Source: Lytechinus pictus (lineage: Eukaryota). From it: a DNA stretch of 64,000 nt. The position numbers and the translations under genes are program-made. Positions 21,443 through 61,641 of this stretch are shown here, piece by piece. The notes under the pieces were generated by a model, which did no database searches, was not told where the DNA came from, and was given only the letters and a program-made list of their open reading frames with translations. How positions within the stretch are numbered: position 1 is the stretch's first letter; each line of letters starts with the position of its first letter. The DNA lies in NCBI RefSeq assembly GCF_037042905.1, contig NC_087245.1, positions 23,500,001 to 23,564,000 on the forward strand, in the 5' to 3' direction.

Positions 21443-21469
21443 TATGGGGCGCCAAGTGTCCGCCAGTGT

Positions 21470-22080
21470 ATTCCGTCCAAATCACGGCATTCCGTACACA
21501 AAATGTGTTTTTATTCAGACGAAAATCATTTCGTCATGACGCTTTTTTATTTCGTACACAAAATTTATTTTTTGTCACACAAAATCAATTTCGTCTCGAC
21601 GAAATGCACGAAATCAATTTCGTCTAGACGAAATGTAATTGCGTCCACAAAGTTTATTTGGCGTGCCATACGAAATGAATTTTTATCAAACGAAATGGCG
21701 CACCAAATGTCCGATGGTAAATTCCGTCCAATTCACGCAATTCCGTACACAAAATGTGTTTTTGTTCATATGAAAATCATTTCGTCATGACGCAGTTTTA
21801 TTTCGTATACGAAATTATTTTTTGTCACACAAAATCAATTTTCGTCGAGACTAAATGTAATTGCGTCCACAAAATTAATTTCGTTGCGATGCGAAAATCT
21901 ATTCCGTCGACGAAATCATTTTGTGTCAAAACCACAAAAAAATTTCGTTGACGAAATGATTTTGTGTCAAAACACAAAAAAATTTCGTCGACGAAATGAT
22001 TTTGTGTCAAAAGACAAAAAAATTTCGTCGACGAAATGATTTTGTGTTTTGAGTCTTTTTGACATAAAATCATTTCGTCT
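21470..22080. repeat. Left subterminal repeat domain of the giant element
   Basis: Duplicated block with ~250-bp period (ATTCCGTCCAA at ~21470 and ~21721), then ~38-bp units containing the palindrome TTTCGTCGACGAAA. Confidence 0.85.
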
Positions 22081-23384
22081 CCTCTGTCTCGAAGGGGACA
22101 TAAGAAGGTCGCTGATTGGCTGCACCTTGCTCAAGCTGTTTTCGCTCCGGGACGATCACACTTTTTCACAGCTCAGATTGGCATGTTGGTGAACTTATTA
22201 GCTTAGATTTCACGTTATTCATTCCTACATGAGCTGCATACAACTGCTCTAATCGGTAGGATGTGGACGGACATTGCATTCGTAAGTTCAGCTATGTTTT
22301 CGACTTCAAAATTACGTTGAAAAAAAAATGGGAATTCGTTAGTCGTTACCAAACTTGCATTTGCAAAAAGCTGTGTAACAATACTAGTCCCGTGTATTTA
22401 AGTTTATGTACTGTAGTCAGCAGACCATTGGGGGGGGGGTCTTTTCTGCACACCTAAAAAGTAAAATGGTTATGAATTATACAGGTTGAAGATATTTAGG
22501 CTTTGATCTTAATAAATAATGTAAAATTCATTCCGAGCAAAATGCTGAAAATTTCATTGAAATTGGATGACAACAAAAGTTATTGATGCCTGGCCGTACA
22601 TGCCGTATGAAACTCTAACGTTAGGCTACTCCACTCAGTGACTCACGCGTATTGCGAGGGTTAGTATTAGTATACTAACCTCGCACCATTAACCACGTTT
22701 GGCAATGGATTTCTAACTAGTGGGTCACGCGTGCTGTGATCCCACTTCTGGTGTCCACAACACACAACTTCTATTGCTTGATTTTTCTGTGCGCGGCGGC
22801 ATGTAATGAACCCTTGAGTGACTAGGCCTAAAAAACTCAGGCAATGGTTCGTATAGCCAGCCATTAAACACTCCACTATAGCCTATAGGTGAAGCGGAGG
22901 TAAGCAGTAGTGAAGTGTAGTGGAGCTTACACGAACCATCGCCTGCATGCTGTACTAGTATAGTTGTGGTAGCCTTGGCCCTGGCCCCACTCATTACTAG
23001 TTCGAGGTTAGTTGCTACATATAGACAGTTGCTACACTACAGTACATGTATTATTATAGACTATAGTACTAACCTCGTACACCGAACTGCATTTGGCCCT
23101 GGATTTCTGTGAAGTTGGCAAATATCGCTTCATTACAATACAGAATTAATATTTGCCGAAACTCCTCGCTACTCATCGGGGCGCTTTGCGGTGAGTAGCC
23201 ATAATACAAAAAGTCAATAGTATATTTTTAATTAAATCAAAATCATATTAAAAAAAAAGCAAATTTGATTACTTTGGAGTTTGGACTAGAAAGTGACTTC
23301 GCGTGTCTCTTCTTTTTACGCAAAGAAAAGGAAGCCTGATGGTGGCGCTAATAAATTTCACAGCCTTGATTCAGGCTCGCTTCA

Positions 23385-24223
23385 AATGCAGCTCCTCGGT
23401 AATTATGCCCCCGCAGACAAAGTCCGGAGGGGGCATAAAGCGTTGCCCCTGTCCGTTGATTCGCCCGCCCCCCACTCGGTTTCCGCACAATAAATCGAAA
23501 TATATTTCGATTTATATATATTGGTTAAAAAAAAATATGTTGTGTAGGTACATGACACCATAGTACAGGCTAACTTTGAATTCGGAGTCTGCAGGTCCAA
23601 GGTCACAGCTCATGAAATATCCGAGTTGGTTTCCGCATGATGACTTATGAAATATTCAACAGATTTATAAAATTAGGGTGTGTAGGTAGATGACACCATA
23701 TACAGGCTAAGTTCGGAGTCGGCAGGTCAAAGGTCACGGCTCATTAAATATGCAATTTAGTTTCCGCATGATTACTTATGAAATATTCTACATATTTAAC
23801 CGAATTTGAGTGTGTAGGTAGACGACACCAAAATACAGGTCAAGTTCGAATTCGTAGTCGGCAGGTCAAAGGTCACGGCTCATTAAATATGCAATTTAGT
23901 TTCCGCATGATTACTTATAAAATATTCTACATATTTAAACAAATTTGAGTGTGTAGGTAGATGATACCAATACAGGCTAAGTTCGAATTCGGAGTATGCA
24001 GGTCAAAGATCACAGCTCCTTAAAGATATCTTATGAAATATTCAACAGATTTTTTAAAAATTTGGGTGTGTAGGTAGATGATGATGATGATGATGCATAG
24101 CATTTTTACAGCGGCGTAACAGGGTTCGGTGGCCAGGGGGGGGGGGGGGCAAGAGCCAAAAATTTCCCGGTCATATCATGGTATGAATAGGCGTAATGGT
24201 GTAATAAGGCGACTATTTTGAGA
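23385..24223. repeat. Single left-arm copy of the unit amplified x4 in the right arm (HINE-like 5' end plus ~120-bp subrepeats)
   Basis: TTATGCCCCCGCAGACAAAGTCCGGAGGGGGCATAA head followed by tandem GCAGGTCAAAGGTCAC-containing units; reverse complement of the 44277-47228 units. Confidence 0.85.
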
Positions 24224-25735
24224 AGGCCAGAATTTATCTTTAAAAAAAGTTGCGAGCGAGCGAAGCGAGCGAGCAATTTTTTTTTAACCTTTTTAATACA
24301 AAAATCCAATTTTGTGATATATTTTGACATGATATCCAGATAATAAATTTATTCAATTCTTCTCTCTTTAGATTCCTTTTTTGTCACGGTGGTCTGTACG
24401 CCACTGTGAAGAGGATTCTTTGCGGCAGTAGCGTGAAGAGTAAAAAACAAAACAAAAAAACAACGAGGAGCGCAGTATAGAACATGTGCCAAAAGGCTGC
24501 TTTATATATATAAGTCCTGAGCGAGCGAAGCGAGCGAGAAAAAAAATCAACTTTTCATGAGAATCTAACTTTGAGCTATTTTTTTAACATATTCAGTAAT
24601 TAAAATCATATCCTACAATACTTTTCCAACAAAAAAGGAGGTAATTCCTCCTTTTTTTGTTCTTGGCTGTAGAACTTTTTGGGGCCATGGCCCAACCCTT
24701 CCATACGCAGTGCTGTGCGTTTGGGGTCCAGGGCAGAGCCCCAGGAACTTCTTGATATCAAAGCCATTTAAACCTTGCAGAAATCCCCAATTTTAATCAA
24801 ATCGCAGGCATAATATAGCTTTTACACAACACATTTATTCAACCCAGTTGCGTAATGAACCAAATATTTTGAGGGGGCAAAACATAGAAATGTGGGAAAA
24901 ATTTGTAAAAAGTCGCCAGTGTGCAAAGCGAGCTGGAAAAAATTGCCTATTGAAATTACAATCTAATTATGTGATAGATTTTTCCATTATATTCAGCAAA
25001 TAACACATTTCATTGTTTCCATTCATTTCATTATACGTCATGCACGTTGTCTCCTATAAAATTTCTTTTATATCCTCTTGGGTGTGGAACCACGACCCCC
25101 CCCCCCCCCCCCGCCTGTATGGCAGTGATTGAACGTGATTGAACGGGGGCGTTATAGAGCCATTTGAAGATTATAAATGAAGAGCCCCTACTTTGTGGGG
25201 TCTGGGGCAAAGCCCCGGTAGCTTATTTGCATAAAATTTAGAAAACTTATAACACAATGTTGTATGCAGTCCATCTTTCTTCCCGCTCTTTAATTTCAAT
25301 CATCAGCAGCCCGGTCGTGTTATATTTTTTCTTGTTCCTTTTCTTTGTTTTCTAATTTAGCTCTTGACTAATTACATTCTACCTTCGTTTCCCGCTATTG
25401 TTTGCCATTTTGTCATCTTTTAATTTATTTCCCACCGTGCTATTGCATTACATAGGCCCTTTTCTCAATGATTTGTTCTTTTTCAAATGTAAATTCTATC
25501 GTACATTTTCCCGCTTTCCTCCCTTTTCTACTAAAAACAGTTTTTTCTTCATTGTCTTTTTCCTTTTCTCTTTCCATTTCCCTTTCCTCCTTTCCTTTTC
25601 CCCTTTCCTTCCCCTTTCCCTTTCTTTCTCCCTCCTTTTTTTCTTTTTCCCGTTTTTTTTATTTTCCCGGTGAAATCCGCCAGGGGGGGGGGCAACTTGC
25701 CCCCCCCTGCCCCCCCCCCGCCTGTTACGCCACTG
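24109..25735. mobile_element. hAT-type MITE shared by both arms (left copy)
   Basis: CAGCGGCGTAACAGG...CCTGTTACGCCACTG; 8-bp TSD CATTTTTA / CATTTCTA; mirror copy at 42784-44388. Confidence 0.85.
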
Positions 25736-26025
25736 CATTTCTATAGCACCATATATCTGTCAAAGACATTCAAAGGCATATTGGAGGAGCCAGCCAATCT
25801 GGGTCGCCTACAAGGGCGCGCACACAGAACTGTGACCCGCAGGTCTCTCCTCCCGATAACTGGTTGGGGGAATGCAGGTGGACCACTACACAGGGTCATT
25901 TAATATGCGAGTTGGTATCCTCATAATAACTTATAAAATTTCAACAGATTTTTTAAAAATTTGGTGTTTAGATAGATGACACCATAATACATGCAAATGA
26001 GCCTCGAAATTCGAAAATTATAATA

Positions 26026-26610
26026 TTAAAGCAATATTGACTGGCCTCGGGGCGATACGACATATATCGCCCAAACTAGATTTATATCGCCCGAGTCGTA
26101 GACGAGGGTGATATCAATTTAGTGATGGCGATATATGTCCTTTCGCCCCCAGGCCAGTCAATATTGCTATTATTAACCAAATCAGAAATCTAGAGCAAAA
26201 ATCGTTAAAATTTAGATGTTTTAAATTTTTAGAATGAGAATCTACTTTCTCATGTTGAGCAGACTGGGCCTCTGAACTTTACCATTGTGACGTAGGTGAA
26301 ATGACGCGTCCCTGCATGGCCAGGCCGCAGTATCCAGCGTTGTCTCAACTTGATTACCATTATGACGTATAGCACTGCGCGGTTCAAGGACGCGTACAAC
26401 TTAACAACGCGTAGAATACCCGGATGTTAGCGCTGCCTTTTATTGCCCGCTACATTTCCACGCATTTTCTCATTGACTTTTCTGAGCGGGCAATAAATTG
26501 GGCCCGTGGATAAACAATTGGAATTTTATTGACCGGCCATTTGATCCCAGTCTTAAGCAGGCAACAATGTTTCAAAGTTGCCCTGCTCAGATGTCTGATA
26601 CGGTTAATAA
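26026..26610. mobile_element. Left-arm-specific element with an internal region complementary to both termini
   Basis: Absent at the mirror site (~40660). 26143-26167 is complementary to the left end (26031-26055) and the adjacent 26171-26186 is complementary to the right end (26594-26609). Confidence 0.7.
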
Positions 26611-27424
26611 TACATAATAATTCATGGAAAATGAATTATATTGCACACAAGTGGGATAAATCATTCAATAGTAATTGTAATGCACAGAATTATAACAAGT
26701 GTTGGTAAAACATCACAAAACCATTCATTTTAAAGTAGTAAAATAATTGAATTGACAAAGATTCTACCACTTCAGGCCATCCATAATTTGACTCATACTC
26801 GTTGCTTTCAGACCCTTATCAAGATTTTGATAAATTCTCTCTCTAATATATGCATAGAGTTTATAAAATCGTGTGTTTCGGTATCTAAAGAGTTTATTCA
26901 TGATGATAATATTTTGATGGTGTTTGGAATCCTAAAAACCTGTATAATTATCATCATTTTAGGAAGAAAGCCTGTATGGTTTACTTAAACTATTCAAATT
27001 TGATATCTGGGGATACCCATCTCAATGTCCACATACATGTGATTATTTTTTGTCATGAAATGAATTACTGATAATTTCATTTCCTCAGCAATTTAATGCC
27101 CATGTCTGCATGTTTGAGTATGTTTTATGCATATTTCGCCACTGCTATTATTTTGATAGGATGTATTTCCAAATTCATCACAATAATTGTAAGTTTTATC
27201 ATAATTTTACTTTTTGAAAATTATGCTATTTTTGTTCCACCAATAGTATCAATATGACGATATCAATGGATTCTAGTTAATCCTTTTGGGTAAGATTGGA
27301 ACTAACTCTGTGTTTAATAGATAAAGATATATGACTAACTTGTCCAGGTAATGAGAAATGGGCCCCTGCTGAGTAGGCCTAGAGTTTTTATGCCCCCGCA
27401 GACGAAGCCCGGAAGGGGCATTAA

Positions 27425-28198
27425 CCCTAAAATGGCCGGGGGGGGGTTGAATCAACCCCCCCCCCCCTCAACATTTTCTGCGATCATTCCGCCGCGCGAA
27501 ATTTTTTGACCGCGCCACTCACATAGTTTATACTTTTAAGTCTCGCGCATCTTTTGAGACCAAATTTAAGACCCCCGGGTACGCGGTTCCGAAATTACGC
27601 AACATTTTGTAAGTGCATGTCAGACCAAAAATTGTTCCAAAACGTGATTTAGTGTACAAAGTCAATGCAAATTGAGTTTTCTCATCTTATTCATAAAGAT
27701 ATGATTATTTTTACTTTATACAGCTGAAAGCAATTGATTTTAGCATAATTATGCTTCAAAAAAGTTGTGCAATAAATCTGGTGAAAAAAACAAAGAAAAA
27801 CAAAAGGTTGAAAAACAAAGAAATACATAAGAAATTCATAAAACAATAAAATACATAGGAAATTGATTTCCAAACCGAAGTTTTTTTCAATTGCCATTGT
27901 TAAGAATGCTACAAAGAATATTTTTTACCAAAAATTAGCATTCTAGGAGCTTTATTTAGTGAATTAGAGCAAAAAGTATGATTTATGCATAAATTAGCAT
28001 AATTAATTCATATAAAATGAAATCTCATTATTTTGGAAAATTTTACCATACAGCCTTGTAGATTACATCGCACACTACCAGCGTGCAAATTTTTGCGGCG
28101 CTCGCGCGATCGGCGGCTGAGAACTCAGGGGGGGGGTTGAATCAACCCCCCCCCCCCCCCGGCCACAGAACAGCCAAAAAAGCCCGGCCTAGTTAGGG
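27425..28198. mobile_element. piggyBac-type MITE, left-arm-specific
   Basis: TTAA|CCCTAAAATGGCCGGG ... CCCGGCCTAGTTAGGG|TTAA; the right arm has a single TTAA empty site (~39455). Confidence 0.9.
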
Positions 28199-28468
28199 TT
28201 AAGCGTTGCCCCTGTCCGTCCCCCCACTTGGTTTCTGCGCAATAACTCGAAAAATATTTAATGGATTTAAAAAAAATTTGGTGTGTAGGTAGATGACCAC
28301 AAAATACAGGCTAAGTTCGAATTCGGTGTACGCAGGTCAAAGGTCACATCTCATTATATATGCAAGTCGGTTCAAAGGTCTAAATTTGTTAATTAATTAT
28401 ATATATGCATATTGGTTTCTGCATGATATTAAGTTCAAACATATTGAATGGATTTCTGATCGCGTTAA

Positions 28469-29056
28469 AGGGGAATCCAGCCTTGGCCATTAAATGTTGT
28501 GTTGGGAAGGAGAAAAATAAATTAAACAGAATGGTGAAAGTTTGAAAGAAATCGGACAAGCAATAAGAAAGTTATAGCTGCTTTAAAATTGAGATCACTA
28601 ATACTATGTAGATTTCAAATTGGCAACTGGATAAGTAAATTATGACAAGGGCAAGGACAACTTTCCCATAGGCCATGTACTTTATTATCAGGGATTAGTG
28701 GTTTTCTCCTAAGTACCCATTCCCCTGGGGCATTAATCTAAATATAACCCAGGTAGTATATTGTTTTATGTCCTCATGAAAGAAAAATATTAATTTGAAA
28801 TAAAACTTTTGGGAAAAAAAAATCACATTTTCGACATAATATGAATTGGAGTACATGGAAGAGTAGTCCTTGCCTTACATCCCATATGCAGCCAATTTGA
28901 AGTCTCCATGGGTACAGTGATTACCAATATTTACAACTTTTAAAAATTCATAACTTTCTTGTTGTTTGTCCAATATTGTTCAAACTTTCACCTATCAACT
29001 TGTCTGATTTTTCTTTTCCTTATAAAAACAATTTTTTATTTGGGTTGGATTCCCCT
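28469..29056. mobile_element. Kolobok-type MITE, family B, left-arm-specific
   Basis: TTAA|AGGGGAATCCAGCC ... GGTTGGATTCCCCT|TTAA; empty TTAA site in the right arm (~39188); near-identical copy at 55516-56110 in the opposite orientation. Confidence 0.9.
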
Positions 29057-29146
29057 TTAAGCGGGGGCATCCGTGTCCTTTGGACACGTCAAATTTTCTT
29101 AATCATGTGTAATTGATTTTATGACATGTGTTTACATTTGCTGCAG

Positions 29147-29356
29147 ATTCCCATTCAGCCGTTGGACTGAACCTGTACTGTCTGTAACACAGTATGGATG
29201 GTCAATATGAAGCGAGCTTCATTGAATTCCTCCAAGAGCTCTGTACTCCGTTCTGATCATTTTGAAGATGGTTGCTTTGACAGGACTGGGCAAGTGACTC
29301 GTCTTAGACAGGATGCTGTCCCAACCATGTTTGATTTCCTGCCTCGTCTTCAGAAG
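29147..29356 (+). pseudogene. THAP zinc-finger exon (decayed), left arm
   Basis: Bounded by CAG| and |GT. Encodes FPFSR..[frameshift]..VWMVNMKRASLNSSKSSVLRSDHFEDGCFDRTGQVTRLRQDAVPTMFDFLPRLQK, with the THAP FP, W, (C)SxHF and AVPTxF motifs. The zinc-ligand Cys reads Arg (CGT). Confidence 0.85.
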
Positions 29357-29574
29357 GTACAGTAGATCTATATCATACATGTGTTCTAAAGAAATATTTT
29401 CTCTGTATTATCTACCTTTGGTTTGATAGAACATTGCTTTAAATATTCCATTTTCAGTAGCCAAATAGAGATGAAAATTATCCTATTTGGGAGGGTAACC
29501 ATGGACCTGGGCCTATACTGTGTATTTACAGTAAACTCTTACTAAATGAACAAATATATTAAAAATTTGGTTTA

Positions 29575-30956
29575 CCCTACATAATAATCCTGGGCTACTT
29601 TGAGATTGCATAGCCCGGGGGGGGGGCCTTTTTGGTCCCCCTCTTCAGATCTCCATGCACTGTCGATCGCAACGAAAACCGATGCACACGTCACCATCAA
29701 TGTAATCTGCAAGCATGGAGCTCGACATTTTTCACGATAAATCCGTCGCGCGAATTTTTTTGACCGCGTCACTCGTTGACTTTTTACTTTCAAGTCTTGC
29801 GCAACTTTTGAGACCAAAATTGTGACCCCCAGGTACAGGGTTCCGAAATTACGCAAAATTTCGTAACTGCATGCAGAACCAAAATTGCTCAAAAACGTGT
29901 ATTTGTGTACAAATCCAATGCAAGTAGTGTTTTTAGCCAAAATTTATAAAATGTATAATATTTTTCCTTTAACTGCTCAAAATCAATTAATTTTATCTTG
30001 TTTATGATAAAAAAAAACGTCTCCGACAATTTCCATTGAAAAAACCATAAAAAACAAAAAGTCGAAAAACACAGAAATACATAAGAAATTTAGAAAACAA
30101 TAAAATACATAAAAAATGAATGTGATGTTGACAACTTTTTTAAAGATTAATTTAATCAGATGCCTATAAAGAGTAAGTGAAACAAAAATGAGCATTTTAG
30201 GGGCATTATTTTGTTAATTAGAGCAAACTTATGATTTTACGCATTAATTAACATAGCAATGAGCAATGAGATTTTTCGCAGATTTTGATATTATGGTATT
30301 GTAGATAATGCCATGGGTAACGCGCGTGCCAATTTTCGTCGCGATTGCGAGATCAACGGCCGAGATCATAAGGGGGGCTGAATCAGCCCCCCCCCCCCCC
30401 GTCTTCTTAGGCATCGAAATAGCCCAGTCTATTTAGGGTTAAAGATAAATCCCTAAATAATTCCCCAAATTCTATGATTTCTAAACAAATGTGCTCCTGA
30501 AGAAATGGTAAATCTAATTTCTACTTTTATGTATTTTATTGCATGGTTCTATAATTCCATACGTATTTCTTTGTTTTGGGGCCTTATGTATTTTATAGTT
30601 TTTTTTCAATGGGATCACTTCGTGGCACTATTCCAATTATAAAAAGCAAGATTTGATTATTTTCAACCAATTAGTGCAAGAATAATGATGCATTTGTCAA
30701 TTATGACTGAAAATAGAATTTCCATTGGATTAAATATGTATACAAAATAATATTTTTGAGCAATTTTCGGTCCAACATGAACTCATAAAATGTTGCGTAA
30801 CTGCGTATCTGGGCGTCTCGAATTTTGTCTAAAAGCTCTGCGAGAATTGAACGAAAAAAAAAATGGTGGTACCTCGTTTCTCATTGTGGACTTATCGTGA
30901 AAAATGTGGATGGGGGGGCTTATTAAGCCCCCCCCCCCCCCCGGGGCTAGATAGGG
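29575..30956. mobile_element. piggyBac-type MITE shared by both arms (left copy), intronic to the THAP pseudogene
   Basis: TTTA|CCCTA ... ATAGGG|TTAA; mirror copy at 37103-38675. Confidence 0.7.
29723..30438. mobile_element. One-ended piggyBac-type MITE nested in the left arm
   Basis: Ends ...TATTTAGGG|TTAA; body similar to 27425-28198; replaces ~90 bp that are present in the right arm (~38440-38530). Confidence 0.7.
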
Positions 30957-31147
30957 TTAATATATCATCATGAATATTTAAAAAAACATTTATTTTGTTG
31001 CAAGTCACTGGAAAAGGTTTGATTTCTAAATAAATATTATTCTTCATGCATTATCGAATATTTAATTGAAAAATTTAAAGTTATCTTTTCATTCTTGTAT
31101 CTGTTTTTGTTCAATATTTTTTTTTTAAATTCATTCGTCTCGTACAG

Positions 31148-31380
31148 AATTCACCAAACCAAGGAATTCCCCGAAAGAAAGATGTTTTGATTCAGCAAAC
31201 AACCTCCCAGATACTGCAAAGACACCTGTACCAAAGTCTTCAGCACCTTTATTTCTCAAGGACCACTCCTACTCAATATCAGAAAGTCCAAGAGGGGTAA
31301 AGTGGAAGTTAACAGCAATAATGGACTGTATTAAGAACTTGGAGAAGAGGCTGAAAACCACACACGAGAAGTCCCGCCGT
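31148..31380 (+). pseudogene. Downstream exon of the THAP gene: HCF-binding motif plus coiled coil (decayed), left arm
   Basis: Follows a CAG acceptor. One frame reads FTKPRNSPKER...FLKDHSYSISESPRGVKWKLTAIMDCIKNLEKRLKTTHEKSRR. DHSY fits the [D/E]HxY motif followed by a coiled coil, as in THAP proteins. Out of phase by 1 nt with the previous exon. Confidence 0.75.
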
Positions 31381-31664
31381 GTACATTACTTGCTCTTAAG
31401 TTTGGACAAACATAACTTGCAAAACTTTACAACAAATAATTACCCCAATGTGCATTCTGATTATTTAAAATAGCTCAATGAAAATGTTTATCAGTGGGCA
31501 TGTAACAAAAGTGAATTCATTAAATTTGAACGTGTTGCAAAAATGATGTCTTACAGTATATTCATTCTGACTTAGAATGTCAGAAGAAAAAAAGTTTGTG
31601 AAAAGTAGGAATGACGGCAAGATGACAGAAGAATAGAACAGGATAGAGCAAGGGGGACAGATAA

Positions 31665-32266
31665 AGGACAAGTCCACCCCAAAAATTGTTGATATGAATA
31701 AAAAGAGAAAAATCCAACAAGCATATAACACTGAAAATTTGATAAAAAATCGGATGTAAAATAAGAAAGTTATGACATTTAAAAATTTTGCTAAATTTTA
31801 CAAAAGAGTTATATGCACATTCTGTACACAGTCGGTATGCAAATGAGGAGACTGATGACGTCATCCACTCACTATTTCATTTGATATATAGAATAAGGTA
31901 TATTCTAATTTTCTCCTTGTCATGTTAAACAAAATTTTATTCCTCCCTGATCATGTGGAATTAGCATTATTCAATACTTTTTTGGTTCAGTAAAGTTTGT
32001 CCTTATGGTAAAATCTGTAAAAAATGAAATATTGTATAATTCAAACAATAAAAAACAAAATAAACAGTGAGTGAGGGACATTATCGACTGTCTCATTTGC
32101 ATGTCACTGAGTTGTGAATATTTTTGTTTTGTGAAAAATAAGTGAAAATTTAAAATGCCATAACTTTCTTAGTTTACATCCGATTTTGATGAAATTTGCA
32201 GCGTTATGCTAGTTCGATTTTTCTCAATTTAACTGAACCAACAATTTTCTTGGGTAGACTTGACCT
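31665..32266. mobile_element. Kolobok-type MITE, family A, left-arm-specific
   Basis: AGGACAAGTCCACCCC...GGGTAGACTTGACCT; absent at the mirror site (~36395). Confidence 0.85.
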
Positions 32267-32919
32267 TTACTAATGAGCTGTTGGATAGAGACAAAAATAT
32301 GAATTGAGATTGAGGGTGATAGAGAAAGAGAGACAGGTGTGGGGGAGCCTTTGATGAATGCCTGAGAAGGCGAACATTACCATAATTTTTTTTTGAGGAT
32401 TTGGACAGTAATGAATAGTACATGTTTTTTCTGTTGGTATTTCTCAAAATATGTGTATGTTGTATGTAATGAAATGGGTATAATCCTTTTGTAAGATACA
32501 CTCATTCAGAAAATATTAACTAAACAAAAAAAAAAGCCAAATTATATTTTACTTATTTTCAACTGTTCAGACACTCTCATATCAAAAGTACCCCCCCCCC
32601 CCCCTCATTTCAAGGTATTGGAGAGAGAGAGAGGTTGGATGAGAAATGGATTGGCTGTCTGCAGAAAAAATGCAGGGGGAGCAAAACATTTTTAGGATAT
32701 GTTCAAGGGAGCGAAGCGACCGAGCAGAAAAATTATTCTGGGGATATATGTGAGAGAGCAAAGTGACGAGAAGAACAAATGCAGGGGCCAAAATATTTCG
32801 AGAATATGTGAGAGGGAGCAAAGTGACCAAGCAGAGGTAAAAGGAAAGAGGGACAAAAATTGTGGTATGTGTGAGGGAGCAAAGCATCCGATAAAAAAAA
32901 CCAGAAAGCAGGTCAATCA

Positions 32920-36678: not shown

Positions 36679-36894
36679 ACGGCGGGACTTCTGCTGTGTG
36701 GTTTCAGCCTCTTCTCCAAGTTTTTAATAGTCCATTATTGCTGTTATCTTCCACTTTACCCCTCTTGGACTTTCTGATATTGAGTAGGAGTGGTCCTCGA
36801 GAAATGAAGGTGCTGAAGACTTTGCAGTATCTGGGAGGTTGTTTGCTGAATCAAAACGTCTTTCTTTCAGGGAATTCCTTGGCTTGGGTGAATT
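36679..36894 (-). pseudogene. Mirror copy of the THAP-gene DHSY/coiled-coil exon, right arm
   Basis: Reverse complement of 31148-31380 with a small deletion and substitutions. Confidence 0.75.
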
Positions 36895-37102
36895 CTGTAC
36901 GAGATGAATGAATTAAAAAAAAGAAACATATAAGAAATATTGAACAAAAACAGATAGAAGAATGAAAAGATAGCTTTAAATTTTTCAATTAAATATTCGA
37001 TAATACATGAAGAATAATATTTATTTAGGAATCAAACCTTTTCCAGTGACTTGCAACAAAATAAATGTTTTTTTTTTATTAATATTCATGATGATATATT
37101 AA

Positions 37103-38675: not shown

Positions 38676-38895
38676 TAAACCAAATTTTTAATATATATTT
38701 GTTCATTTAGTAAGAGTTTACTGTAAATACACTGTAAAGGCCCAGGTCCATGGTTAGCCTCCCAAATAGGATAATTTTCATCTCTATTTGGCTACTGAAA
38801 ATGGAATATTTAAAGCAATGTTCTATCAAACCAAAGGTAGATAATACAGAGAAAATATTTCTTTAGAACACATGTATGATATAGATCTACTCTAC

Positions 38896-39101
38896 CTTCT
38901 GAAGATGAGGCAGGAAATCAAATATGGTTGGGACAGCATCCTGTCTAAGACGAGTCACTTGCCCAGTCCTGTCAAAGCAACCATCTTCAAAATGAGCAAA
39001 ACGGAGTACAGAGCTCTTGGAGGAATTCAATGAAGCTCGCTTCATATTGACCATCCATACTGTGTTACAGTATCTGTTCAGTCCAACAGCTGAATGGGAA
39101 T
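38896..39101 (-). pseudogene. THAP zinc-finger exon (decayed), right arm
   Basis: ORF 38887..39120(-) reads ...VWMVNMKRASLNSSKSSVLRFAHFEDGCFDRTGQVTRLRQDAVPTIFDFLPHLQK; same splice sites as 29147-29356. Confidence 0.85.
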
Positions 39102-39519
39102 CTGCAGCAAATGTAAACACATGTCATAAAATCAATTACACATAATTAAGAAAATTTGACGTGTCCAAAGGACACAGATGCCCCCGCTTAACGCGATCAG
39201 AAATCCATTCAATATGATTGAACTTAATATCATGCAGAAACCAATATGCATATATATATAATTAACAAATTTAGACCTTTGAACCGACTTACATATATAA
39301 TGAGATGTGACCTTTGACCTGCGGACTCCGAATTCGAACTTATCCTGTATTTTGTGGTCATCTACCTACACACGAAATTTTTTTTTAATCCATTAAATAT
39401 TTTTCGAGTTATTGCGCGGAAACCAAGTGGGGGGGGGACGGACAGGGGCAACGCTTAATGCCCCCTCTGGGCTTCGTCTGTGGGGGCATAAAAACTCTAG
39501 GCCTACATGTACTCAGCAG

Positions 39520-40897
39520 GGGCCCGTTTCTCAACACTTGGACAAGTTAGTCATATAACTTTATCTACCAAACACAGAGTTAGTTCCAATCTTACCCAAA
39601 AGGATTAACTAGAATCCATTGATATCGTATACTATTGGTGGAAAGTACATGAGACGTAGCCTTAGTCACAAAATAGCATAATTTTCAAAAAGTAAAATTA
39701 TGATAAAACATAATAATAATAATAATAATCTGCTTTTATATAGCGCTTAATACATCGGAATGACGTGTCTAAGCGCTTTACAGATATATTATTAGCCCGG
39801 TGATCGGACTCAATCAGTCATTCCCGCACACAACGTGTGCACATCCTCCACTCCTTCGGGAGTATTTCAGTCAGTCGCCGGTGAGGCGCACACTGTACTG
39901 GACAAGCTACAATGACTTTCACATCCTACCGGGTACCCATTTAGCACCTGGGTCGAGAGTGGCAAAGTGTGGATTTACGCCTTGCCAAAGGACGCCAGAC
40001 CGCGGTGGGATTCGAACACACGTCCCTCTGATTACAAGAGTGAGAACCACTACATCACAGCTCCTCCAAACTTACAATTATTGTGATGAATTTGGAAATA
40101 GATCCTATCAAAATAATAGCAGAGGCAAAATATGCATAAAAAATACTCAAACATGCAGACATGGGCATTAAATTGCCGAGGAAATGAAATTATCACTAAT
40201 TCATTTCATGACCAAAAAAAAAATCACATGTGGACGTTGAGATGGGTACCCCCAGATATAAAATTTGAATAGTTTACGTAAGTAAACCATGCAGGCTTTC
40301 TTCCTAAAATGATGATAATTATACAGGTTTTTAGGATTCCAAACACCATCAAAATATTATCATCATGAATTGTTCAACTCTTTAGATACCAAAACACACA
40401 ATTTTATAAATTCTATGCATATATTAGAGAGAGAATTTATCAAAATCTTGATAAGGGTCTGAAAGCAACGAGTACAAGTCCAATTATGGATGGCCTGAAG
40501 TGGTAGAATCTTTGTCAATTCAATTATTTTACTACTTTAAAATGAATGGTTTTGTGATTTTTTACCAACACTTAATATAATTTCTGTGCATTACAATTAC
40601 TATTGAATGATTTATCCCACTTGTTTGCAATAAAATTCATTTTCTATGAATTATTACGTAATATTATAATTTTCGAATTTCGAGGCTCATTTGAATGTCA
40701 TAGTCTACCCACATGATATCACTACGTCATTAAGAAAGAAGTTATGACAGGTTCGGAGATCTGTCATAACTATTTCGTCAAGTTGTCCCCGATCTTGGCA
40801 AAGAGGGATTCGTGAAACAGTTAGTAGACAAGTAGCTCACTATCTCCAATTTAGTTAAGAAGTTAGAAGACTTATGACGGTGTTGAGAAACGGGCCC
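39520..40897. mobile_element. PIF/Harbinger-type non-autonomous element (complete in the right arm, one-ended in the left)
   Basis: CAG|GGGCCCGTTTCTCAACAC ... GTGTTGAGAAACGGGCCC|CAG: 18-bp TIR and 3-bp CAG TSD. Confidence 0.75.
39710..40067 (-). mobile_element. tRNA-derived SINE with an L2-type tail, right-arm-specific
   Basis: Minus strand: head with B-box GTTCGAATCCC, central CCCAGGTGCTAAATGGGTACCCG, tail AAGCGCTATATAAAAGCAG(ATT)n; absent at the mirror site (~27190). Confidence 0.85.
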
Positions 40898-42783
40898 CAG
40901 TCTACACAAGCAGAACCAAACAGAATCAGTTTGCCACACTCAAATTCCCAATTTGCGCTTGCATCAATTGTTTAGTTACATACCTTTCCCATTTATGATT
41001 ACAAAAAGTGCTTAAAATGACAATTTTTTAGGTCAGAATTTTTAGCTCGCGCTTCGTGTTCCCATTCTTGAAATATGTACCGTCTTCATGGGTAAACAGT
41101 CCTTAATAGGTCCCTTTTCGATCATGCTAGAACACTTGTTAAATATTCTGTTCATGCTTGGCATTCTCAGTAATTATCTAGTTACATACGCATCTTGTTC
41201 AGGATCACAAACAGTGCCCAGAATGTTAAATTTCAGGACAAAATAAATACATGAAAGTTCAAAAAAAGAAAGAAAAAAATATTCGCCTGCGCTTCGCGCT
41301 CGCACTTTTTATATAAGGCCTATGAGATTATTTCATATTGATGTTGCTTTATAAGAATAAAGCTAAGAAATGACTGATCGGGGAAAATATAGGTGAAGAT
41401 AATTTTGGGCCCCATCCCCTATTGGCGAAAGTCTGATACACCCTTGTGACACATACACACACAGAGAAAAAAATAGTGCCCCCCCCCCCTGAAAAAGCAA
41501 GGACCCCCCGGTGCCCCCCTCCCCAGAGAAATAATCCTAGCTACGCCACTGGACTGATTCCTTTATCCCCAAACCACTTATACAAGACAAGCTTATTTCT
41601 ATCCAGGATGTAAATCAGTTCTAGAAAGAGCAATCTGGAAATTTGCCTCTGGCAGGGCCTAGTAGGACACTATAGGTGTTTGATTTGATTGATTTTATTT
41701 CAGCATTTTTTCAACAGAAATAATTAACAAACATAATGTACAACATAAAGAAAAAAATAGTGATACATTTCTTTTTACAAAAATAAATACAAATAATCAT
41801 TCATTTGCAAAAATGTATATAGATAGTATTAGTTTGCAATATTATAAGTTGTACTTTGTACTTTGTTGACTAGACAAAAAAAAATGCTGGAGACCGTTAG
41901 TGTTAATAGGCCTAACGTTATTCCAATACCAACATGATTAAGGGATGCTCCAGGCTGAAGATATTCATAATTGATCATATCTCAAGAAATAGAGTAAAAT
42001 TCACAAAGAAAAATGCTGGAAATTTGATCAAAATCGGATAATAACAAAGTTGTTGAATTTAAAATATTTGCATTATTCCTGTAGATTTCTAGGCATACAT
42101 GAATATTCAGTGGGCAAAATGATGATGTCATAGTCATACCCCCACTTGTTATTTTGTATTTTGTATGAAATTAGGTTTATTAAAAAATTTCCTACAAGTC
42201 ACAATTGGATTGACAACATTTACACCAACTTATTTAATTATAATGGAGACATATCATTTACACATATGACAAAATGAAGCAATTATGATTTCGTGTACAA
42301 TAATAACTGTCAAGGAAAAGGAAAGTGGGGATGTGAAATCATCAGCCCACCTTATGAATATTCATGATGACAATTGTGACATAGACCTAGGGCTAGGCCA
42401 CTCAAGGGTTCATTACATGCCACCGTGAACCAGAAAATCAAGGCACAACGCATGCAACTCTCTTTATGAGCGGATCTCGCATATAGCCATTAGTTTTGAC
42501 CGACTCGATCCTAATTCGATCTTAGCCTGTATTATGGTGTCATCTATCTAAACACCCAATTTTTAAAAAATCTGTTGAAATTTTATAAGTTATTATGAGG
42601 ATACCAACTCGCATATTTAATGACCCTGTGTAGTGGTCCACCTGCATTCCCCCAACCAGTTATCGGGAGGAGAGACCTGCGGGTCACAGTTCTGTGTGCG
42701 CGCCCTTGTAGGCGACCCAGATTGGCTGGCTCCTCCAATATGCCTTTGAATGTCTTTGACAGATATATGGTGCTATAAAAATG

Positions 42784-44388
42784 CAGTGGCGTAACAGGCG
42801 AGGGGGCAAGTTGCCCCCCCTGGCGGATTTCACCGGGAAAATAAAAAAAAAAACGGGAAAAAGAAAAAAAGGAGGGAGAAAGAAAGGGAAAGGGGAAGGA
42901 AAGGGGAAAAGGAAAGGAGGAAAGGGAAATGGAAAGAGATGGGAAAAGAAAACGAAGAAAAAACTGTTTTTAGTAGAAAAGGGAGGAAAGCGGGAAAATG
43001 TACGATAGAATTAACATTTGAGAAAGAACAAATCATTGAGAAAAGGGCCTATGTAATGCAAAAGCACGGTGGGAAATAAATTAAATAAATTAAATAAATT
43101 AAAAGATGACAAAATGGCAAACAATAGCGGGAAACGAATGTAGAATGTAATTAGTCAAGAGCTAAATTAGAAAACAAAGAAAAGGAACAAGAAAAAAAAT
43201 AACACGACCGGGCTGCTGATGATTGAAATTAAAGAGCGGGAAGAAAGATGGACTGCATACAACATTGTGCTATAAGCTTTCTAAATTTTATGCAAATAAG
43301 CTACCGGGGCTTTGCCCCAGACCCCACACAGTAGGGGCTCTTCATTTATAATCTTCAAATGGCTCTATAACGCCCCCGTTCAATCACTGCCATACAGGCG
43401 GGGGGGGGGGGGTCGTGGTTCCACACCCAATAGGATATAAAATAAATTTTATAGGAGACAACGTACATGACGTATAATGAAATGAATGGAAACAATGAAT
43501 TGTGTTATTTGCTGAATATAATGGAAAAATCTAGCACATAATTAGATTTTAATTTCAATAGGCAATTTTTTCCAGCTCGCTTTGCACGCTGGCGACTTTT
43601 TACAAATTTTCCCACATTTCTATGTTTTGCCCCGTCAAAATATTTGGTTCATTACGCAACTGGGTTGAATAAATGTGTTGTGTAAAAGCTATATTATGCC
43701 CGCGATTTGATTAAAATTGGGGAAATCTGCAAGGTTTAAATGGCTTTAATATCAAGAAGTTCCTGGGGCTCTGCCATGGACCCCAAGCGCACAGCACTGC
43801 GTATGGAAGGGTTGGGCCATGGCCCCCAAAAGTTCTACAGCCAAGAACAAAAAAAGGAGGAATTGCCTCCTTTTTTGTTGGAAAAGTATTGTAGGATATG
43901 ATTTTAATTACTGAATATGTTAAAAAATAGCTCAAAGTTATATTCTCATGAAAAGTTGATTTTTTTTCTCGCTCGCTTCGCTCGCTCAGGACTTATATAT
44001 ATATATAAAGCAGCCTTTTGGCAAATGTTCTATACTGCGCCCCTCGTTGTTTTTTTGTTTTGTTTTTTACTCTTCACGCTACTGCCGCAAAGAATCCTCT
44101 TCACAGTGGCGTACAGACCACCGTGACAAAAAAGGAATCTAAAGAGAGAAGAATTAAATAAATTTATTATCTGGATATCATGTCAAAATCTATCACAAAA
44201 TTGGATTTTTGTATTAAAAAGGTAAAAAAAAATTGCTCGCTCGCTCGCAACTTTTTTTAAAGATAAGTTCTGGCCTTCTCAAAATAGTCGCCTTACTACA
44301 CCATTACGCCTATTCATAACATGATATGACCGGGAAATTTTTGGCTCTTGCCCCCCCCCCCTGGCCACCGAACCCTGTTACGCCGCTG
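42784..44388. mobile_element. hAT-type MITE shared by both arms (right copy)
   Basis: Reverse complement of 24109-25735; TSD TAAAAATG on both sides. Confidence 0.85.
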
Positions 44389-47228
44389 TAAAAATGCTGT
44401 GCATCATCATCATCATCATCTACCTACACACCCAAATTTTTTAAAAATCTGTTGAATATTTCATAAGATATCTTTAAGGAGCTGTGATCTTTGACCTGCA
44501 TACTCCGAATTCGAACTTAGCCTGTATTGGTATCATCTACCTACACACTCAAATTTGTTTAAATATGTAGAATATTTCATAAGTAATCATGCGGAAACTA
44601 AATTGCATATTTAATGAGCCGTGACCTTTGACCTGCCGACTCCGAACTTAGCCTGTATTTGGTGTCATCTACCTACACACCATAATTTTTATAAATCTGT
44701 TGAATATTTCATAAGTCATCATGCGAAAACCAACTGGGATATTTCATGAGCTGTGACCTTGGACCTGCAGACTCCGAATTCAAAGTTAGCCTGTACTATG
44801 GTGTCATGTACCTACACACCAACATTTTTTTTAATCAATATATATAAATCGAAATATATTTCGATTTATTGCGCGGAAACCAAGTGGGGGGGGGGGGGGC
44901 GGGGGAATCAACGGACAGGGGCAACGCTTAATGCCCCCTCCGGACTTTGTCTGCGGGGGCATAATTACCGAGGAGCTGCATTTCTCAAAATAGTCGCCTT
45001 ATTACACCATTACGCCTATTCATACCATGATATGACCGGGAAATTTTTGGCTCTTGCCCCCCCCCCCCCCTGGCCACCGAACCCTGTTACGCCGCTGTAA
45101 AAATGCTGTGCATCATCATCATCATCTACCTACACACCCAAATTTTTTTTTAATCTGTTGAATATTTCATAAGATATCTTTAAGGAGCTGTGATCTTTGA
45201 CCTGCATACTCCGAATTCGAACTTAGCCTGTATTGGTATCATCTACCTACACACTCAAATTTGTTTAAATATGTAGAATATTTTATAAGTAATCATGCGG
45301 AAACTAAATTGCATATTTAATGAGCCGTGACCTTTGACCTACCGACTACGAATTCGAACTTAACCTGTATTTTGGTGTCATCTAACTACACACTCAAATT
45401 CGTTTAAATATTTAGAATATTTCATAAGTCATCATGCGAAAACCAACTCAGATATTTCATGAGCTGTGACCTTGGACCTGCAGACTCCGAATTCAAAGTT
45501 AGCCTGTACTATGGTGTCATGTACCTACACACCAAAATTTTTTTAATCAATATATATAAATCGAAATATATTTCGATTTATTGCGCGGAAACCAAGTGGG
45601 GGGGGCGGGCGAATCAACGCTTAATGCCCCCTCCGGACTTTGTCTGCGGGGGCATAATTACCGAGGAGCTGCATTTCTCAAAATAGTCGCCTTATTACAC
45701 CATTACGCCTATTCATACCATGATATGACCGGGAAATTTTTGGCTCTTGCCCCCCCCCCCCCCCCGGCCACCGAACCCTGTTATGCCGCTGTAAAAATGC
45801 TGTGCATCATCATCATCATCTACCTACACACCCAAATTTTTTTTTAATCTGTTGAATATTTCATAAGATATCTTTAAGGAGCTGTGATCTTTGACCTGCA
45901 TACTCCGAATTCGAACTTAGCCTGTATTGGTATCATCTACCTACACACTCAAATTTGTTTAAATATGTAGAATATTTTATAAGTAATCATGCGGAAACTA
46001 AATTACATATTTAATGAGCCGTGACCTTTGACCTGCCGACTACGAATTCGAACTTAACCTGTATTTTGGTGTCATCTACCTACACACTCAAATTCGTTTA
46101 AATATTTAGAATATTTCATAAGTAATCATGCGGAAACTAAATTGCATATTTAATGAGCCGTGACCTTTGACCTGCCGACTCCGAACTTAGCCTGTATTTG
46201 GTGTCATCTACCTACACACCATAATTTTTATAAATCTGTTGAATATTTCATAAGTCATCATGCGAAAACCAACTGGGATATTTCATGAGCTGTGACCTTG
46301 GACCTGCAGACTCCGAATTCAAAGTTAGCCTGTGCTATGGTGTCATGTACCTACACACCAAATTTTTTTTAAATCAATATATATAAATCGAAATATATTT
46401 CGATTTATTGCGCGGAAACCAAGTGGGGGGGGGCGGGTGAATCAACGGACAGGGGCAACGCTTAATGCCCCCTCCAGACTTTGTCTGCGGGGGCATAATT
46501 GCCAAGGAGCTGCATTTCTCAAAATAGTCGCCTTATTACACCATTACGCCTATTCATACCATGATATGACCGGGAAATTTTTGGCTCTTGCCCCCCCCCC
46601 CCCCCCTGGCCACCGAACCCTGTTACGCCGCTGTAAAAATACTGTGCATCATCATCATCTACCTACACACCCAAATTTTTTAAAAATCTGTTGAATATTT
46701 CATAAGATATCTTTAAGGAGCTGTGATCTTTGACCTGCATACTCCGAATTCGAACTTAGCCTGTATTGGTATCATCGACCTACACACTCAAATTTGTTTA
46801 AATATGTAGAATATTTTTTAAGTAATCATGCGGAAACTAAATTGCATATTTAATGAGCCGTGACCTTTGACCTGCCGACTACGAATTCGAACTTAACCTG
46901 TATTTTGGTGTCATCTACCTACACACTCAAATTCGTTTAAATATGTAGAATATTTCATAAGTCATCATGTGGAAACCAACTCGGATATTTCATGAGCTGT
47001 GACCTTGGACCTGCAGACTCCGAATTCAAAGTTAGCCTGTACTATGGTATGGTGTCATGTACCTACACACCAAATTTTTTTTTAATCAATATATATAAAT
47101 CGAAATATATTTCGATTTATTGCGCGGAAACCAAGTGGGGGGGGGCGGGCGAATCAACGGACAGGGGCAACGCTTAATGCCCCCTCCGGACTTTGTCTGC
47201 GGGGGCACAATTACCGAGGAGCTGCATT
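44277..47228. repeat. Higher-order tandem array: 4 units of ~706, 693, 841 and 712 bp, each with ~120-bp subrepeats
   Basis: Units start TCTCAAAATAGTCGCC at 44277, 44983, 45676 and 46517, and end ...AGGAGCTGCATT. Confidence 0.92.
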
Positions 47229-48486
47229 TGAAGCGAGCCTGAATCAAGGCTGTGAAATTTATTAGCGCCACCATCTGGCTTCCTTTTATTTGCGTAAAAA
47301 GAAGAGACACGCGAAGTCACTTTCTACTTCTAGTCCAAACTCCAAAGTAATCAAATTTGCTTTTTTTTAAATATGATTTTGATTTAATTAAAAATATACT
47401 ATTGACTTTTTGTATTATGGCTACTCACCGCAAAGCGCCCCGGTGAGTAGCGAGGAGTTTCGGCAAATATTAATTATGTATTGTAATGAAGCGATGTTTG
47501 CCAACTTCACAGAAATCCAGGGCCAAATGCAGTTCGGTGTACGAGGTTAGTACTAGACTATAGATCTATACATGTACTGTAGCAATCTGTAGCAATATGT
47601 AGCAACTAACCTCGAACTAGTAATGAGTGGGGCCAGGGCCAGTACCACAACTATAGTACAGCAGGCGATGGTTCGTGTAAGCTCCACTACACTTCACTAC
47701 TGCTAACCTCCGCTTCACCTGGCTATATATACGAACCATCGCCTGAGTTTTTTAGGCCTAGTCACTCAAGGGTTCATTACATGCCGCCGCGCACAGAAAA
47801 ATCAAGCAATAGAAGTTGTGTGTTGTGGACACCAGAAGTGGGATCACAGCACGCGTGACCCACTAGTTAGAAATCCATTGCCAAACGTGGTTAATGGTGC
47901 GAGGTTAGTATACTAATAGTACTAACCTCGCAATACGCGTGAGTCACTGAGTGGAGTAGCCTAACGTTAGACTTAGAGTTTCATACGGCATGTACGGCCA
48001 GGCATCAATAACTTTTGTTGTCATCCAATTTCAATGAAATTTTCAGCATTTTGCTCGAAATGAATTTTACATTAATTATTAAGATCAAAGCCTAAATATC
48101 TTCAACCTGTATAATTCATAACCATTTTACTTTTTAGGTTTGCAGAAAAGACCAACCCCCCCCTCCCCCCCCCCCCCATGGTCTGCTGACTACAGTACAT
48201 AAACTTAAATACACGGGACTAGTATTGTTACACAGCTTTTTGCAAATGCAAGTTTGGTAACGACTAACGAATTCCCATTTTTTTTTCAACGTAATTTTGA
48301 AGTCGAAAACATAGCTGAACTTACGAATGCAATGTCCGTGAATAACGTGAAATCTAAGCTAATAAGTTCACCAACATGCCAATCTGAGCTGTGAAAGTGT
48401 GAAAAAGTGTGATCGTCCCGGAGCGAAAACAGCTTGAGTAAGGTGCAGCCAATCAGCGACCTTCTTATGTCCCCTTCGAGACAGAG

Positions 48487-49075
48487 GAGACGAAATGATT
48501 TTATGTCAAAAAGACTCAAAACACAAAATCATTTCGTCGACGAAATTTTTTTGTCTTTTGACACAAAATCATTTCGTCGACGAAATTTTTTTGTGTTTTT
48601 ACACAAAATCATTTCGTCGACGAAATTTTTTTGTGTTTTGACACACAATCATTTCGTCAACGAAATTTTTTTGTGGTTTTGACACAAAATGATTTCGTCG
48701 ACGGAATAGATTTTGTGTGACAAAAAATAATTTCATATACGAAATAAGACTGCGTCATGACGAAATGATTTTCATATGAACAAAAACACATTTTGTGTAC
48801 GGAATTGCGTGAATTGGACGGAATTTACCATCGGTCATTTGGTGCGCCATTTCGTTTGATAAAAATTCATTTCGTATGGCACGCCAAATAAACTTTGTGG
48901 ACGCAATTACATTTCGTCTAGACGAAATTGATTTCGTGCATTTCGTCGAGACGAAATTGATTTTGTGTGACAAAAAATAAATTTTGTGTACGAAATAAAA
49001 AAGCGTCATGACGAAATGATTTTCGTCTGAATAAAAACACATTTTGTGTACGGAATGCCGTGATTTGGACGGAAT
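48487..49075. repeat. Right subterminal repeat domain of the giant element
   Basis: Reverse complement of 21470-22080, with one more ~38-bp unit and a short deletion. Confidence 0.85.
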
Positions 49076-51467
49076 ACACTGGCGGACACTTGGCGCCCCA
49101 TACTCTGCTGGCTCGTTTCTATAGTGCCTTGACGGTTCTAGTCGCAGCAGAGAAAGTAGTATGAAAGAAGAAAAACAGATTCTGATAGCGCAACGAAAGA
49201 TATGTGCAGACCATCTAAGATAAGAAAAATGCAGACTTACTGACTCCTCGCCGGGATGGTAGTAACGTGGCAAATTTGGGGCGATGTACTTTAATATTAC
49301 ATGAAGATAAAGCGAAAGTGTAGCACCAGAATAAAATATGTGCGATCCAGAACATCATACATGTACTTGAGAATAGAATAAGAACATGTGGTCTCTCGAG
49401 CTCTGCGTGTGTCGTGAGCTGAGGCATGGACCATGGCTAGCTGAGGGAAGGATGGCTTTATCCCATGCGTGAACGTTTCGTTGTTTATGTGGGTATGCAA
49501 ATGACTTGGTATTACGTAAGACTCTTCCCATATCGCTCGAAAAATGAACATAATACAGGACATTCATTTTTAATTGTGCAGTCACATGATTATAACATTT
49601 CATTTATTCAAGACTGTTTCTCTAATGGGCCGAGCACCTTTTTGAGAGCAGTAATCAAAACTTGTGTAGTAAATCTGCCATATTTTACTCACGTATACAC
49701 TCCCTTCCTTTGAACGCGAGGTCCTTTCTTCTTCTTCTTTTGCTTGACAAATTTTTGGCGAAATACCTTTAGATTGTAAATTTTTAGATGAAAACCTTTT
49801 TTTTTTCTTTTTTTTTTCTTTTCAAAATTTTCTCATGAATTGTGCCTCCTCCCATTAGAAAAACCTGGATCCACCCCTGCACAACGTAAAGCTGTCCCCC
49901 CCCCCCTCCAACACATAACTGCACAGCCCAACAACCAATGTAACGAACATTTTTATAATAATTATATAAAAAGATTTGGTGCAGCATAAAATATATAAAA
50001 TATAAAGGTATATGCTGGGGATAAAAAGGACATAAAAATAATTGCATTATTCTGTGGCCGGTGGCGAAAGCATAAAAATATTAGATTCTGGATTGGCGGT
50101 GTTCCGGCGGTGTTGAAGCATGATCTTCCGCCGCCAGTGCCAGAATGTATATTTTTACGTACTTCGGGGGGGGGGGGGGGGGTAAGAAATATTTCCATCC
50201 ACATTTCTTCCACATCGGCTGATAAATGCTTAATTATTATCATTTAGGGGGGGGGTGTCCCATGCAACTAAAGTCTGAATTTTTAAGTACATCGTAGCTT
50301 TATTCTTACAATCATGGACCTACTATGGCCTAAATTAATGATGCGAGCGCGAAGCGCGCACGGTAATGTTTATTTTTATATTTCGCCTTGAAAAGAAATA
50401 TAGGAGCGCGAACTTTTTTATGAACATGAACATCTTAAACGGGTCATTCTACTCACTTTTGGTAATCACGCAGGGTATGTTCATCGATTTGATTTATTGT
50501 TCTCGTAAATGCGTATTAGCATTTTCATAACAAAAGAAACATAATATCGTTTAAAATTTTGGCATGAATAATAGAGTGTACTTATTAAAAATATGATTCA
50601 ACCCACACACACCAAATGATCCACACCCAACATATTATGATATTAACAATTAGCAGGATCGAGGATTGTCATTATAAGCACATTGCTTGGAAAAAAATAA
50701 CTGAAAACCCGAGATTCAAACTTATTAAATTGCATTGATTATACAACAGAATGGTGCGAGCGCGGAGCACAAAGAACGAGTTGAAAATTATTAATATTTT
50801 GACATGAAGAGCTGAATCGGGTCATTCTAATCAAATACGGTCTTATGGTAAGTATAAAGTTTATACGCCAAGCGAGCTGATATTTGTTGAAATTAAGATC
50901 TTAATACGAAACATTGTATAAACTGTTTTGGAATATTGCTGCATATTTTCCTGAATAATGATAATAATGTAAAACGCAAGCTGATTTTTTTTAAAGTATA
51001 TTCGCGATTGATTTTTTTTGTATAATGATTTCTACTTTTTCTGTTTTCAAATCGTTCATCTTTTCTTATTTCATTCACTTTTCTTCTTCTTATATCCTTT
51101 CTTATCGTTCCTCTCTATTTCCCCTTTCTCTAGGCATAGATAGCAAAGCCCCAAGAAACTCCAGAATCCTGAGACGTCCAGATGGTATTTTGTACAAAAA
51201 AATGAAGTCACCAATCTAAAAATGTCACTTTAATCCGATTTTAAAAAATGTGGAAAGACACATGCAGGGTTCGGCAACAGGGCATATAAAGTTTAGGAAT
51301 AAAATAGAGAAATGCGAGTAAACGCAAAGAGTTGAATTTGAAAAGTTTTTCGATTTTATATTAACATCCTACATTTTTATTTCAATAGCATGTTCGTGAT
51401 ATTACTTATAACCCCTTATAACATTGCATTATGAAGGGTTATATATAGATATTCCCGTGATGCACAT

Positions 51468-61505: not shown

Positions 61506-61536
61506 AATAGTAGTAGTAGTATTAGTAGTAGTAGTA

Positions 61537-61625
<89 letters not shown>

Positions 61626-61641
61626 TTATTATTATTATTAT

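Follow-up and report, generated by a model that had tools for sequence, protein, structure and literature searches.

Layers of divergence along the arms of a giant palindromic transposon in Lytechinus pictus, and a possible history of copying between the arms

A palindromic, non-autonomous DNA transposon of 27,660 bp occupies positions 21443-49102 of a 64,000-nucleotide stretch of the Lytechinus pictus genome (assembly GCF_037042905.1, contig NC_087245.1, positions 23,500,001 to 23,564,000; hereafter the window, to which all coordinates refer). Self-comparison of the window resolves the element as a single large inverted repeat, whose two arms diverge in layers from nearly alike at the termini to strongly diverged beside the loop. 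The history favoured here, with a confidence only slightly better than even, is that of an old palindrome in which a small number of infrequent and long repair events, extending to the terminus, replaced the outer parts with sequence of the opposite arm, accompanied by short internal patches.

A reading made earlier from the sequence alone had proposed that arm identity falls from the termini toward the loop, and the measured profile bears this out. Anchored alignment of the left arm with the reverse complement of the right arm gave 8285 paired columns; the trend tests used the 6015 columns (226 mismatches) left after gaps were masked and tandem arrays removed. Divergence rises inward in this set (p=6e-20), and the rise persists when the inner kilobase is left out (p=6e-6, and p=0.0002 by block permutation), so that the profile, with indels masked, is not flat. 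The by-eye estimates of the sequence-only reading also hold up. The outer few hundred base pairs, described as almost identical, differ at 2 of 358 columns (21443-21800), and the open reading frames (ORFs) 21503(+) and 48755(-) are, as claimed, one residue apart (1/95). The 24-31 kb region, judged to be a few percent apart, differs at 130 of 4063 columns between 24000 and 31000 (3.2%), while 32280-32390 and 32700-32960, put at roughly one in ten and more than that, differ at 9/109 and 29/238. Three levels can be distinguished (Table 1), and a single inverted duplication cannot have yielded them, as had been argued on the ground that one event would give uniform divergence.

The first 267 bp of the outer layer are identical between the arms, which is the longest identical run; six indels are kept in this layer, and its boundary with the middle layer is loosely placed (21645-23053). 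At 21831-22855, where substitutions are about 1%, five indels of 6-63 bp are retained. Outer divergence is low even in intron DNA (7/574, against the middle-layer count in Table 1; p=0.003), and selection on end motifs therefore does not explain the outer layer. The middle layer is homogeneous, with a variance-to-mean ratio of 0.97-1.38 (p 0.17-0.58) and no overdispersion. A single straight slope is rejected as a model of the profile. A linear ramp from 1.0 to 4.8% plus a jump fits about as well as three flat levels; the Bayesian information criterion favours the ramp by 3-8 units, and the Akaike information criterion is split.

Part of the apparent slope is CpG decay. Divergence within the middle layer rises from 2.5% to 4.0% (p=0.0016), largely at CpG sites, and no trend is left in this layer once such sites are removed (p=0.18 and 0.67). 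The levels themselves persist without CpG sites, at 0.9%, 2.9%, and 10-16% (outer vs middle, p=5e-5; middle vs inner, p=2e-10). Arm divergence at CpG sites is 6/169 (3.6%) at 22856-26026 and 26/128 (20%) at 26611-31653 (p=5e-6), a contrast that suggests a methylation boundary inside the element, and the observed/expected ratio of CpG drops inward from 1.44 to 0.47. These CpG gradients are what would be expected if the arms had a single age and owed their profile solely to selection and unequal mutation rates, with protection near the ends and methylation deeper inside. Such an account is very improbable: the non-CpG levels already largely refute it, GC content is similar (35-40%), and the relative referred to here as organism B lies 7-10% from both the middle and the inner parts, so rates there are alike.

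The jump to the inner layer is firm. The sequence-only reading had named the pairing of paralogous copies of the duplication at 32.9-35.3 kb as a possible source of the inner divergence, and this source can be dismissed: 32272-32910 lies outside the duplication, yet its divergence is 10.7%, and the distances of the right arm from the two paralogous left copies are 15.9% and 14.6%. The support interval of the jump (31647-32410) contains a miniature inverted-repeat transposable element (MITE) that is present only in the left arm, at 31660-32270, and has a long private branch (60/587 private substitutions, compared with 35 and 24 in two other copies in the window). The position of the jump at this MITE fits a conversion tract halted by heterology, and could be chance.

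Relatives suggest when the arms became alike. Each arm carries the remnant of a THAP gene (Table 1), and contigs of organism B that match its exons 2 and 3, the loop, and the left-type inner layer do so at a distance of 7.1-10.2% (seven pieces among 32 shown of 164,154). This distance falls between the arm divergences of the middle and inner layers, so the inner layer predates the split from these relatives and the middle layer postdates it; the latter was thus probably overwritten after the split, provided that the relatives are palindromic. Lytechinus variegatus has two frequent THAP types, X (P0009 cluster) and Y (P0038 cluster), and all four listed accessions of P0038 are within 1-3 numbers of an X-type accession. 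Over the approximately 77 codons covered by both types, the two arms share amino-acid changes absent from both X and Y at five codons, one of which is the loss of a Cys kept by both types, while six changes are confined to X and three to Y; the arms differ from each other at 4/216 nucleotides. Among the variant rows (40 of 879 shown, by construction rows in which the left arm differs), 16 fall in aligned arms: in nine the arms are alike and unlike the runs compared, in five the right arm is like the runs, and two are three-way. Only three of the nine arms-alike sites sit in element-specific DNA. These comparisons point to a homogenisation of the outer and middle arms that came later than the palindrome itself. 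At 31309, an Ile/Leu site, the right arm has the state of the X-type protein P0023 and the left arm that of Y-like proteins, possibly a relic of an old arm difference or a case of homoplasy.

Fold-back priming at inverted repeats offers a different timing. The inner kilobase would then be a pair of pre-existing, diverged inverted repeats that primed one late duplication of everything outside them, the middle level would be the date of birth, and only the outer layer would need later conversion. A late birth of this kind yields the homogeneous middle and the abrupt jump without further assumptions, and the inner region already has three copies that are 14-16% apart. It is nevertheless unlikely, since two diverged THAP types whose accessions are neighbours occur in L. 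variegatus as well, and organism B has the left-type inner layer and the loop; with these, it would need a second, independent birth of a palindrome.

Proteins of sibling copies within L. pictus bear on how often and where the arms exchange sequence. Six such proteins (seven accessions) comprise three left-type and three right-type members, and one left/right pair has consecutive accessions. Since the siblings retain left and right types, arm differences appear to be inherited through transposition. A 15-bp deletion and a neighbouring substitution, which are confined to the right arm here, are present at the protein level in all six proteins, in conflict with the exon-2 arm markers, and left-type siblings keep left states both outside this stretch (in exon 2) and just inside it. 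At the protein level, therefore, a site that differs between the arms in one copy is alike in another. A second variant is common to one left-type and one right-type protein. These patterns appear to be internal exchanges rather than tracts from a terminus; alternatively, the deletion pattern could reflect back-conversion of the left arm of this element from an older copy. A flip of the centre was considered as the source of the sibling mosaics and rejected, as both arm types carry the deletion.

The proposal that the arms are homogenised repeatedly, from the ends inward, as a mechanism of growth of the terminal inverted repeats (TIRs) thus survives in part. The relatives support arms made alike after the palindrome formed, while the siblings, which keep their arm types, speak against a reset at each transposition. 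Copying only from the ends inward is contradicted by the internal patches in siblings, with unconverted sites outside them. TIR growth is likewise not borne out: recruitment of inner sequence, the mode of growth proposed for Galileo (PMC3573991), would make the inner part the youngest, and here the innermost part is the oldest.

Overwriting in rare long events would imply the following history. The palindrome would be as old as its inner layer. After the split from the relatives 7-10% away, a single event starting near the left-only MITE at 31.66 kb would have reset about 10 kb as far as the end, and the outer 1-1.5 kb would have been reset by at least one later event. Between resets the element would jump whole, with its arm differences kept. 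The likeliest trigger would be a transposase cut at one end, followed by inward resection and resynthesis from the other arm; outer DNA would then be reset more often than inner DNA, hence the nesting. Either the same copy, or a sister or sibling copy, could have supplied the other arm as donor.

Short conversion patches alone, commoner near the ends and blocked by divergence or insertion, could in principle replace the long events; mismatch repair in a snap-back stem or in transposase-paired ends would be an example. Steps have no better fit than the ramp over the outer 10 kb, siblings have internal patches, the outer layer is depleted in substitutions and not in longer indels, and the four 700-bp units of the right arm (Table 1) differ among themselves as much as they do from the left unit. 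Patches should, however, leave runs, whereas the middle layer lacks overdispersion and is flat without CpG sites, and no identical run exceeds 267 bp. This alternative is accordingly considered quite doubtful.

Several observations weigh against overwriting in rare long events. In the outer 10 kb, ramp and step describe the data about equally well. Indels of at least 5 bp are as dense in the outer layer (5, beside 11 substitutions) as in the middle (16, beside 177; p=0.013, post hoc), a density that wholesale overwriting would not lead one to expect; for all indels the difference between the layers has p=0.23. There are eight large arm-specific stretches, so the adjacency of the MITE to the jump could be chance, and the long branch of the MITE may reflect its subfamily rather than its age. 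The pairing of X with Y, and of P0002 with P0007, as two arms of one element is deduced from adjacent accessions rather than from position or orientation; the three other Y-cluster proteins (3/7 Y-cluster accessions) and 5/7 L. pictus accessions are without a listed neighbour.

The element ends in TA..TA at 21443 and 49102 and is flanked by an exact 6-bp target-site duplication (Table 1), a match with a chance of about 3.5e-4; a 7-bp reading of the duplication would require unequal ends. Outside it, the left and right flanking DNA is unrelated. These features also bear on whether the palindrome is an assembly artefact, in which two haplotypes were folded together or the ends were polished towards each other. 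Divergence of about 3% with many indels would presumably resemble that between alleles of a heterozygous marine invertebrate, but the exact ends, the duplication, and the unrelated flanks argue otherwise, as do the occurrence of left-type, loop, and right-like pieces all in run X1 and the existence of both arm types as separate L. pictus gene models. An artefact is hence scarcely credible. Among the 24 rows shown of the 9273 in the contig comparison, no loose end appears at either terminus.

Six-frame Pfam scans (12 frame reads) found no transposase domain in the element, neither an integrase-like DDE transposase of the IS3EU/GingerRoot type nor P-type catalytic domains, the THAP remnant in each arm being the sole match. 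Judged by its ends, the element appears IS3EU-like; it is not filed as a member of IS3EU/GingerRoot, because it holds no transposase by which to place it. The structural class Foldback is characterised by very long inverted arms, internal repeats, and a small non-coding centre, all of which are present here. Elements of the P superfamily, including Galileo, have CA..TG ends and 7-8-bp duplications, unlike the TA..TA ends and 6 bp found here.

IS3EU/GingerRoot elements share with this element the TA..TA termini, the 6-bp target duplication, a carried gene fragment with introns, and the loss of transposase, whereas their inverted repeats are described as 100-150 bp in elements of 3.9-12.9 kb (PMC10045372, PMC6839031) and in the present element inverted repeat makes up almost all of the 27.7 kb. 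The Galileo foldback elements of Drosophila mojavensis also have long, internally repetitive inverted repeats, for which repair of one repeat from the other was proposed, along with conversion between copies (PMC3573991). Their repeats, which are 98-100% alike, are lengthened inward by copying (PMC3573991), unlike the present arms, which are ten times longer and oldest in their innermost part. In the human Y palindrome P6, inverted arms are kept similar by conversion, whose tracts can reach at least 9 kb and which is detected as here through states common to the arms within lineages; P6 is fixed in place, more than 99.9% identical, and near steady state (PMC3723533, PMC8600007), whereas this element is mobile, with presumably rare conversion and layers of different age. 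In Wolbachia insertion sequences, one terminal repeat was overwritten by the other, although that case concerns a single mismatch in a short bacterial repeat, is tied to inversion of the centre, and has no positional profile (PMC3004938). Arm-to-arm conversion is therefore already known from Y palindromes and insertion-sequence repeats, and proposed for Galileo; here it would be placed in a mobile element with age layers. A literature search, with most subscription papers and supplements outside its reach, found no publication describing a mobile palindrome whose arms diverge in layers.

Converted palindromes usually retain few differences, which hampers the measurement of conversion rates, tract lengths, and positions (PMC3723533). 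With hundreds of arm differences and siblings in two species, conversion tracts could be mapped directly in this family. Arm identity does not date a foldback element. A wider and unlikely generalisation would be that the ends of giant palindromic transposons are rebuilt by the elements themselves: an intermediate, either cut by transposase or formed by snap-back, would be repaired from the opposite arm, end mismatches would be erased while loops persist, and the arms would become dated layers. If this were true, conversion tracts that are phased and replicated could be read from the multi-copy family, which would also offer a first handle on IS3EU-type movement.

Table 1. Features of the palindromic element, in window coordinates
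Feature	Position	Strand	Remarks
Target-site duplication, left copy	21437-21442	+	Exact 6-bp direct repeat
Outer layer, left arm	21443-22855	+	Mirror 47728-49102; 11/1147 substitutions (1.0%) outside tandem arrays
THAP exon 1, likely remnant	22221-22281	+	Read by eye; 46 bp of it absent from right arm
Middle layer, left arm	22856-31653	+	Mirror 36405-47727; 177/5342 (3.3%) outside tandem arrays; 2.9% without CpG
Left-only stretches, four	26027-30437 (region)	+	26027-26610, 27421-28198, 28465-29056, 29723-30437
THAP exon 2, left arm	29147-29356	+	Pfam PF05485, E=9e-5, just below curated cut-off
THAP exon 3, left arm	31148-31470	+	DHSY motif and coiled-coil-like stretch
Left-only MITE	31660-32270	.	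At divergence jump
Inner layer, left arm	32272-33230	+	Mirror 35470-36394; 115/890 (12.9%) outside tandem arrays
Direct duplication, old	32905-35330	+	32905-33430 and 33422-35330; forms loop
THAP exon 3, right arm	36589-36894	-	15-bp, 2-bp, and 1-bp deletions vs left
Right-only stretches, three	37460-42530 (region)	+	37460-38288, 39710-40071, 40699-42530
THAP exon 2, right arm	38896-39101	-	
Right-only expansion	44276-47229	-	~700-bp unit x4; copies 1.8-4.0% apart
Target-site duplication, right copy	49103-49108	+	Exact 6-bp direct repeat

The cargo is a decayed three-exon THAP gene in each arm (22221-31470, mirror 36589-48340). Exon 2 of the left arm equals the L. pictus protein P0002 in 53/53 residues, and its nearest named proteins are L. 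pictus gene models; exon 3 carries a DHSY motif. The L. pictus annotation lists near-identical copies as THAP2-like genes, and that of L. variegatus has related copies under the name THAP5-like (a 24-member cluster). Transposon cargo is the probable nature of dozens of such 'THAP2/THAP5-like' gene models in Lytechinus. Of the 36 relatives scanned, chosen for length or rank from 150 listed, 19 have P-transposase domains, 16 have THAP only, and one has a Harbinger-type helix-turn-helix. The fragment, which is without a catalytic part, could have originated as the 5' end of a THAP9/P-like gene. Nothing in the window matches the exons that lie downstream in the X type of L. variegatus.

Dating of arm-specific insertions succeeded for two only, 28465-29056 and the MITE at 31660. 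The former is 4.9% from another copy in the window, at 55512-56114, with which it makes up a second MITE family; both it and 27421-28198 are flanked by TTAA. The family of the MITE at the jump (about 610 bp) has three window copies, at 14753-15363, 31660-32270, and 63377-63991. A further MITE-like insert of 1.4 kb (33539-34942) breaks the second copy of the loop duplication. The unit copies of the right-only expansion are as old as the local arm divergence.

Near the termini, a second copy of the terminal 160 bp (21695-21857; 86% identical) lies 251 bp inside each end and is followed by a 40-bp palindromic tandem array (21901-22047). ORF 21503(+) was rejected as a gene, being a reading through the terminal repeats with no Pfam match. 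Just left of the giant element is a separate element of 1.36 kb (19403-20765) with 430-bp inverted arms that are 78% alike. Elsewhere, the window holds two direct repeats of about 80% identity that contain 330-bp repeats (12356-13352 and 17431-18424), a 56-bp tandem repeat in four copies (5009-5229), and a 73-unit trinucleotide array (61508-61725).

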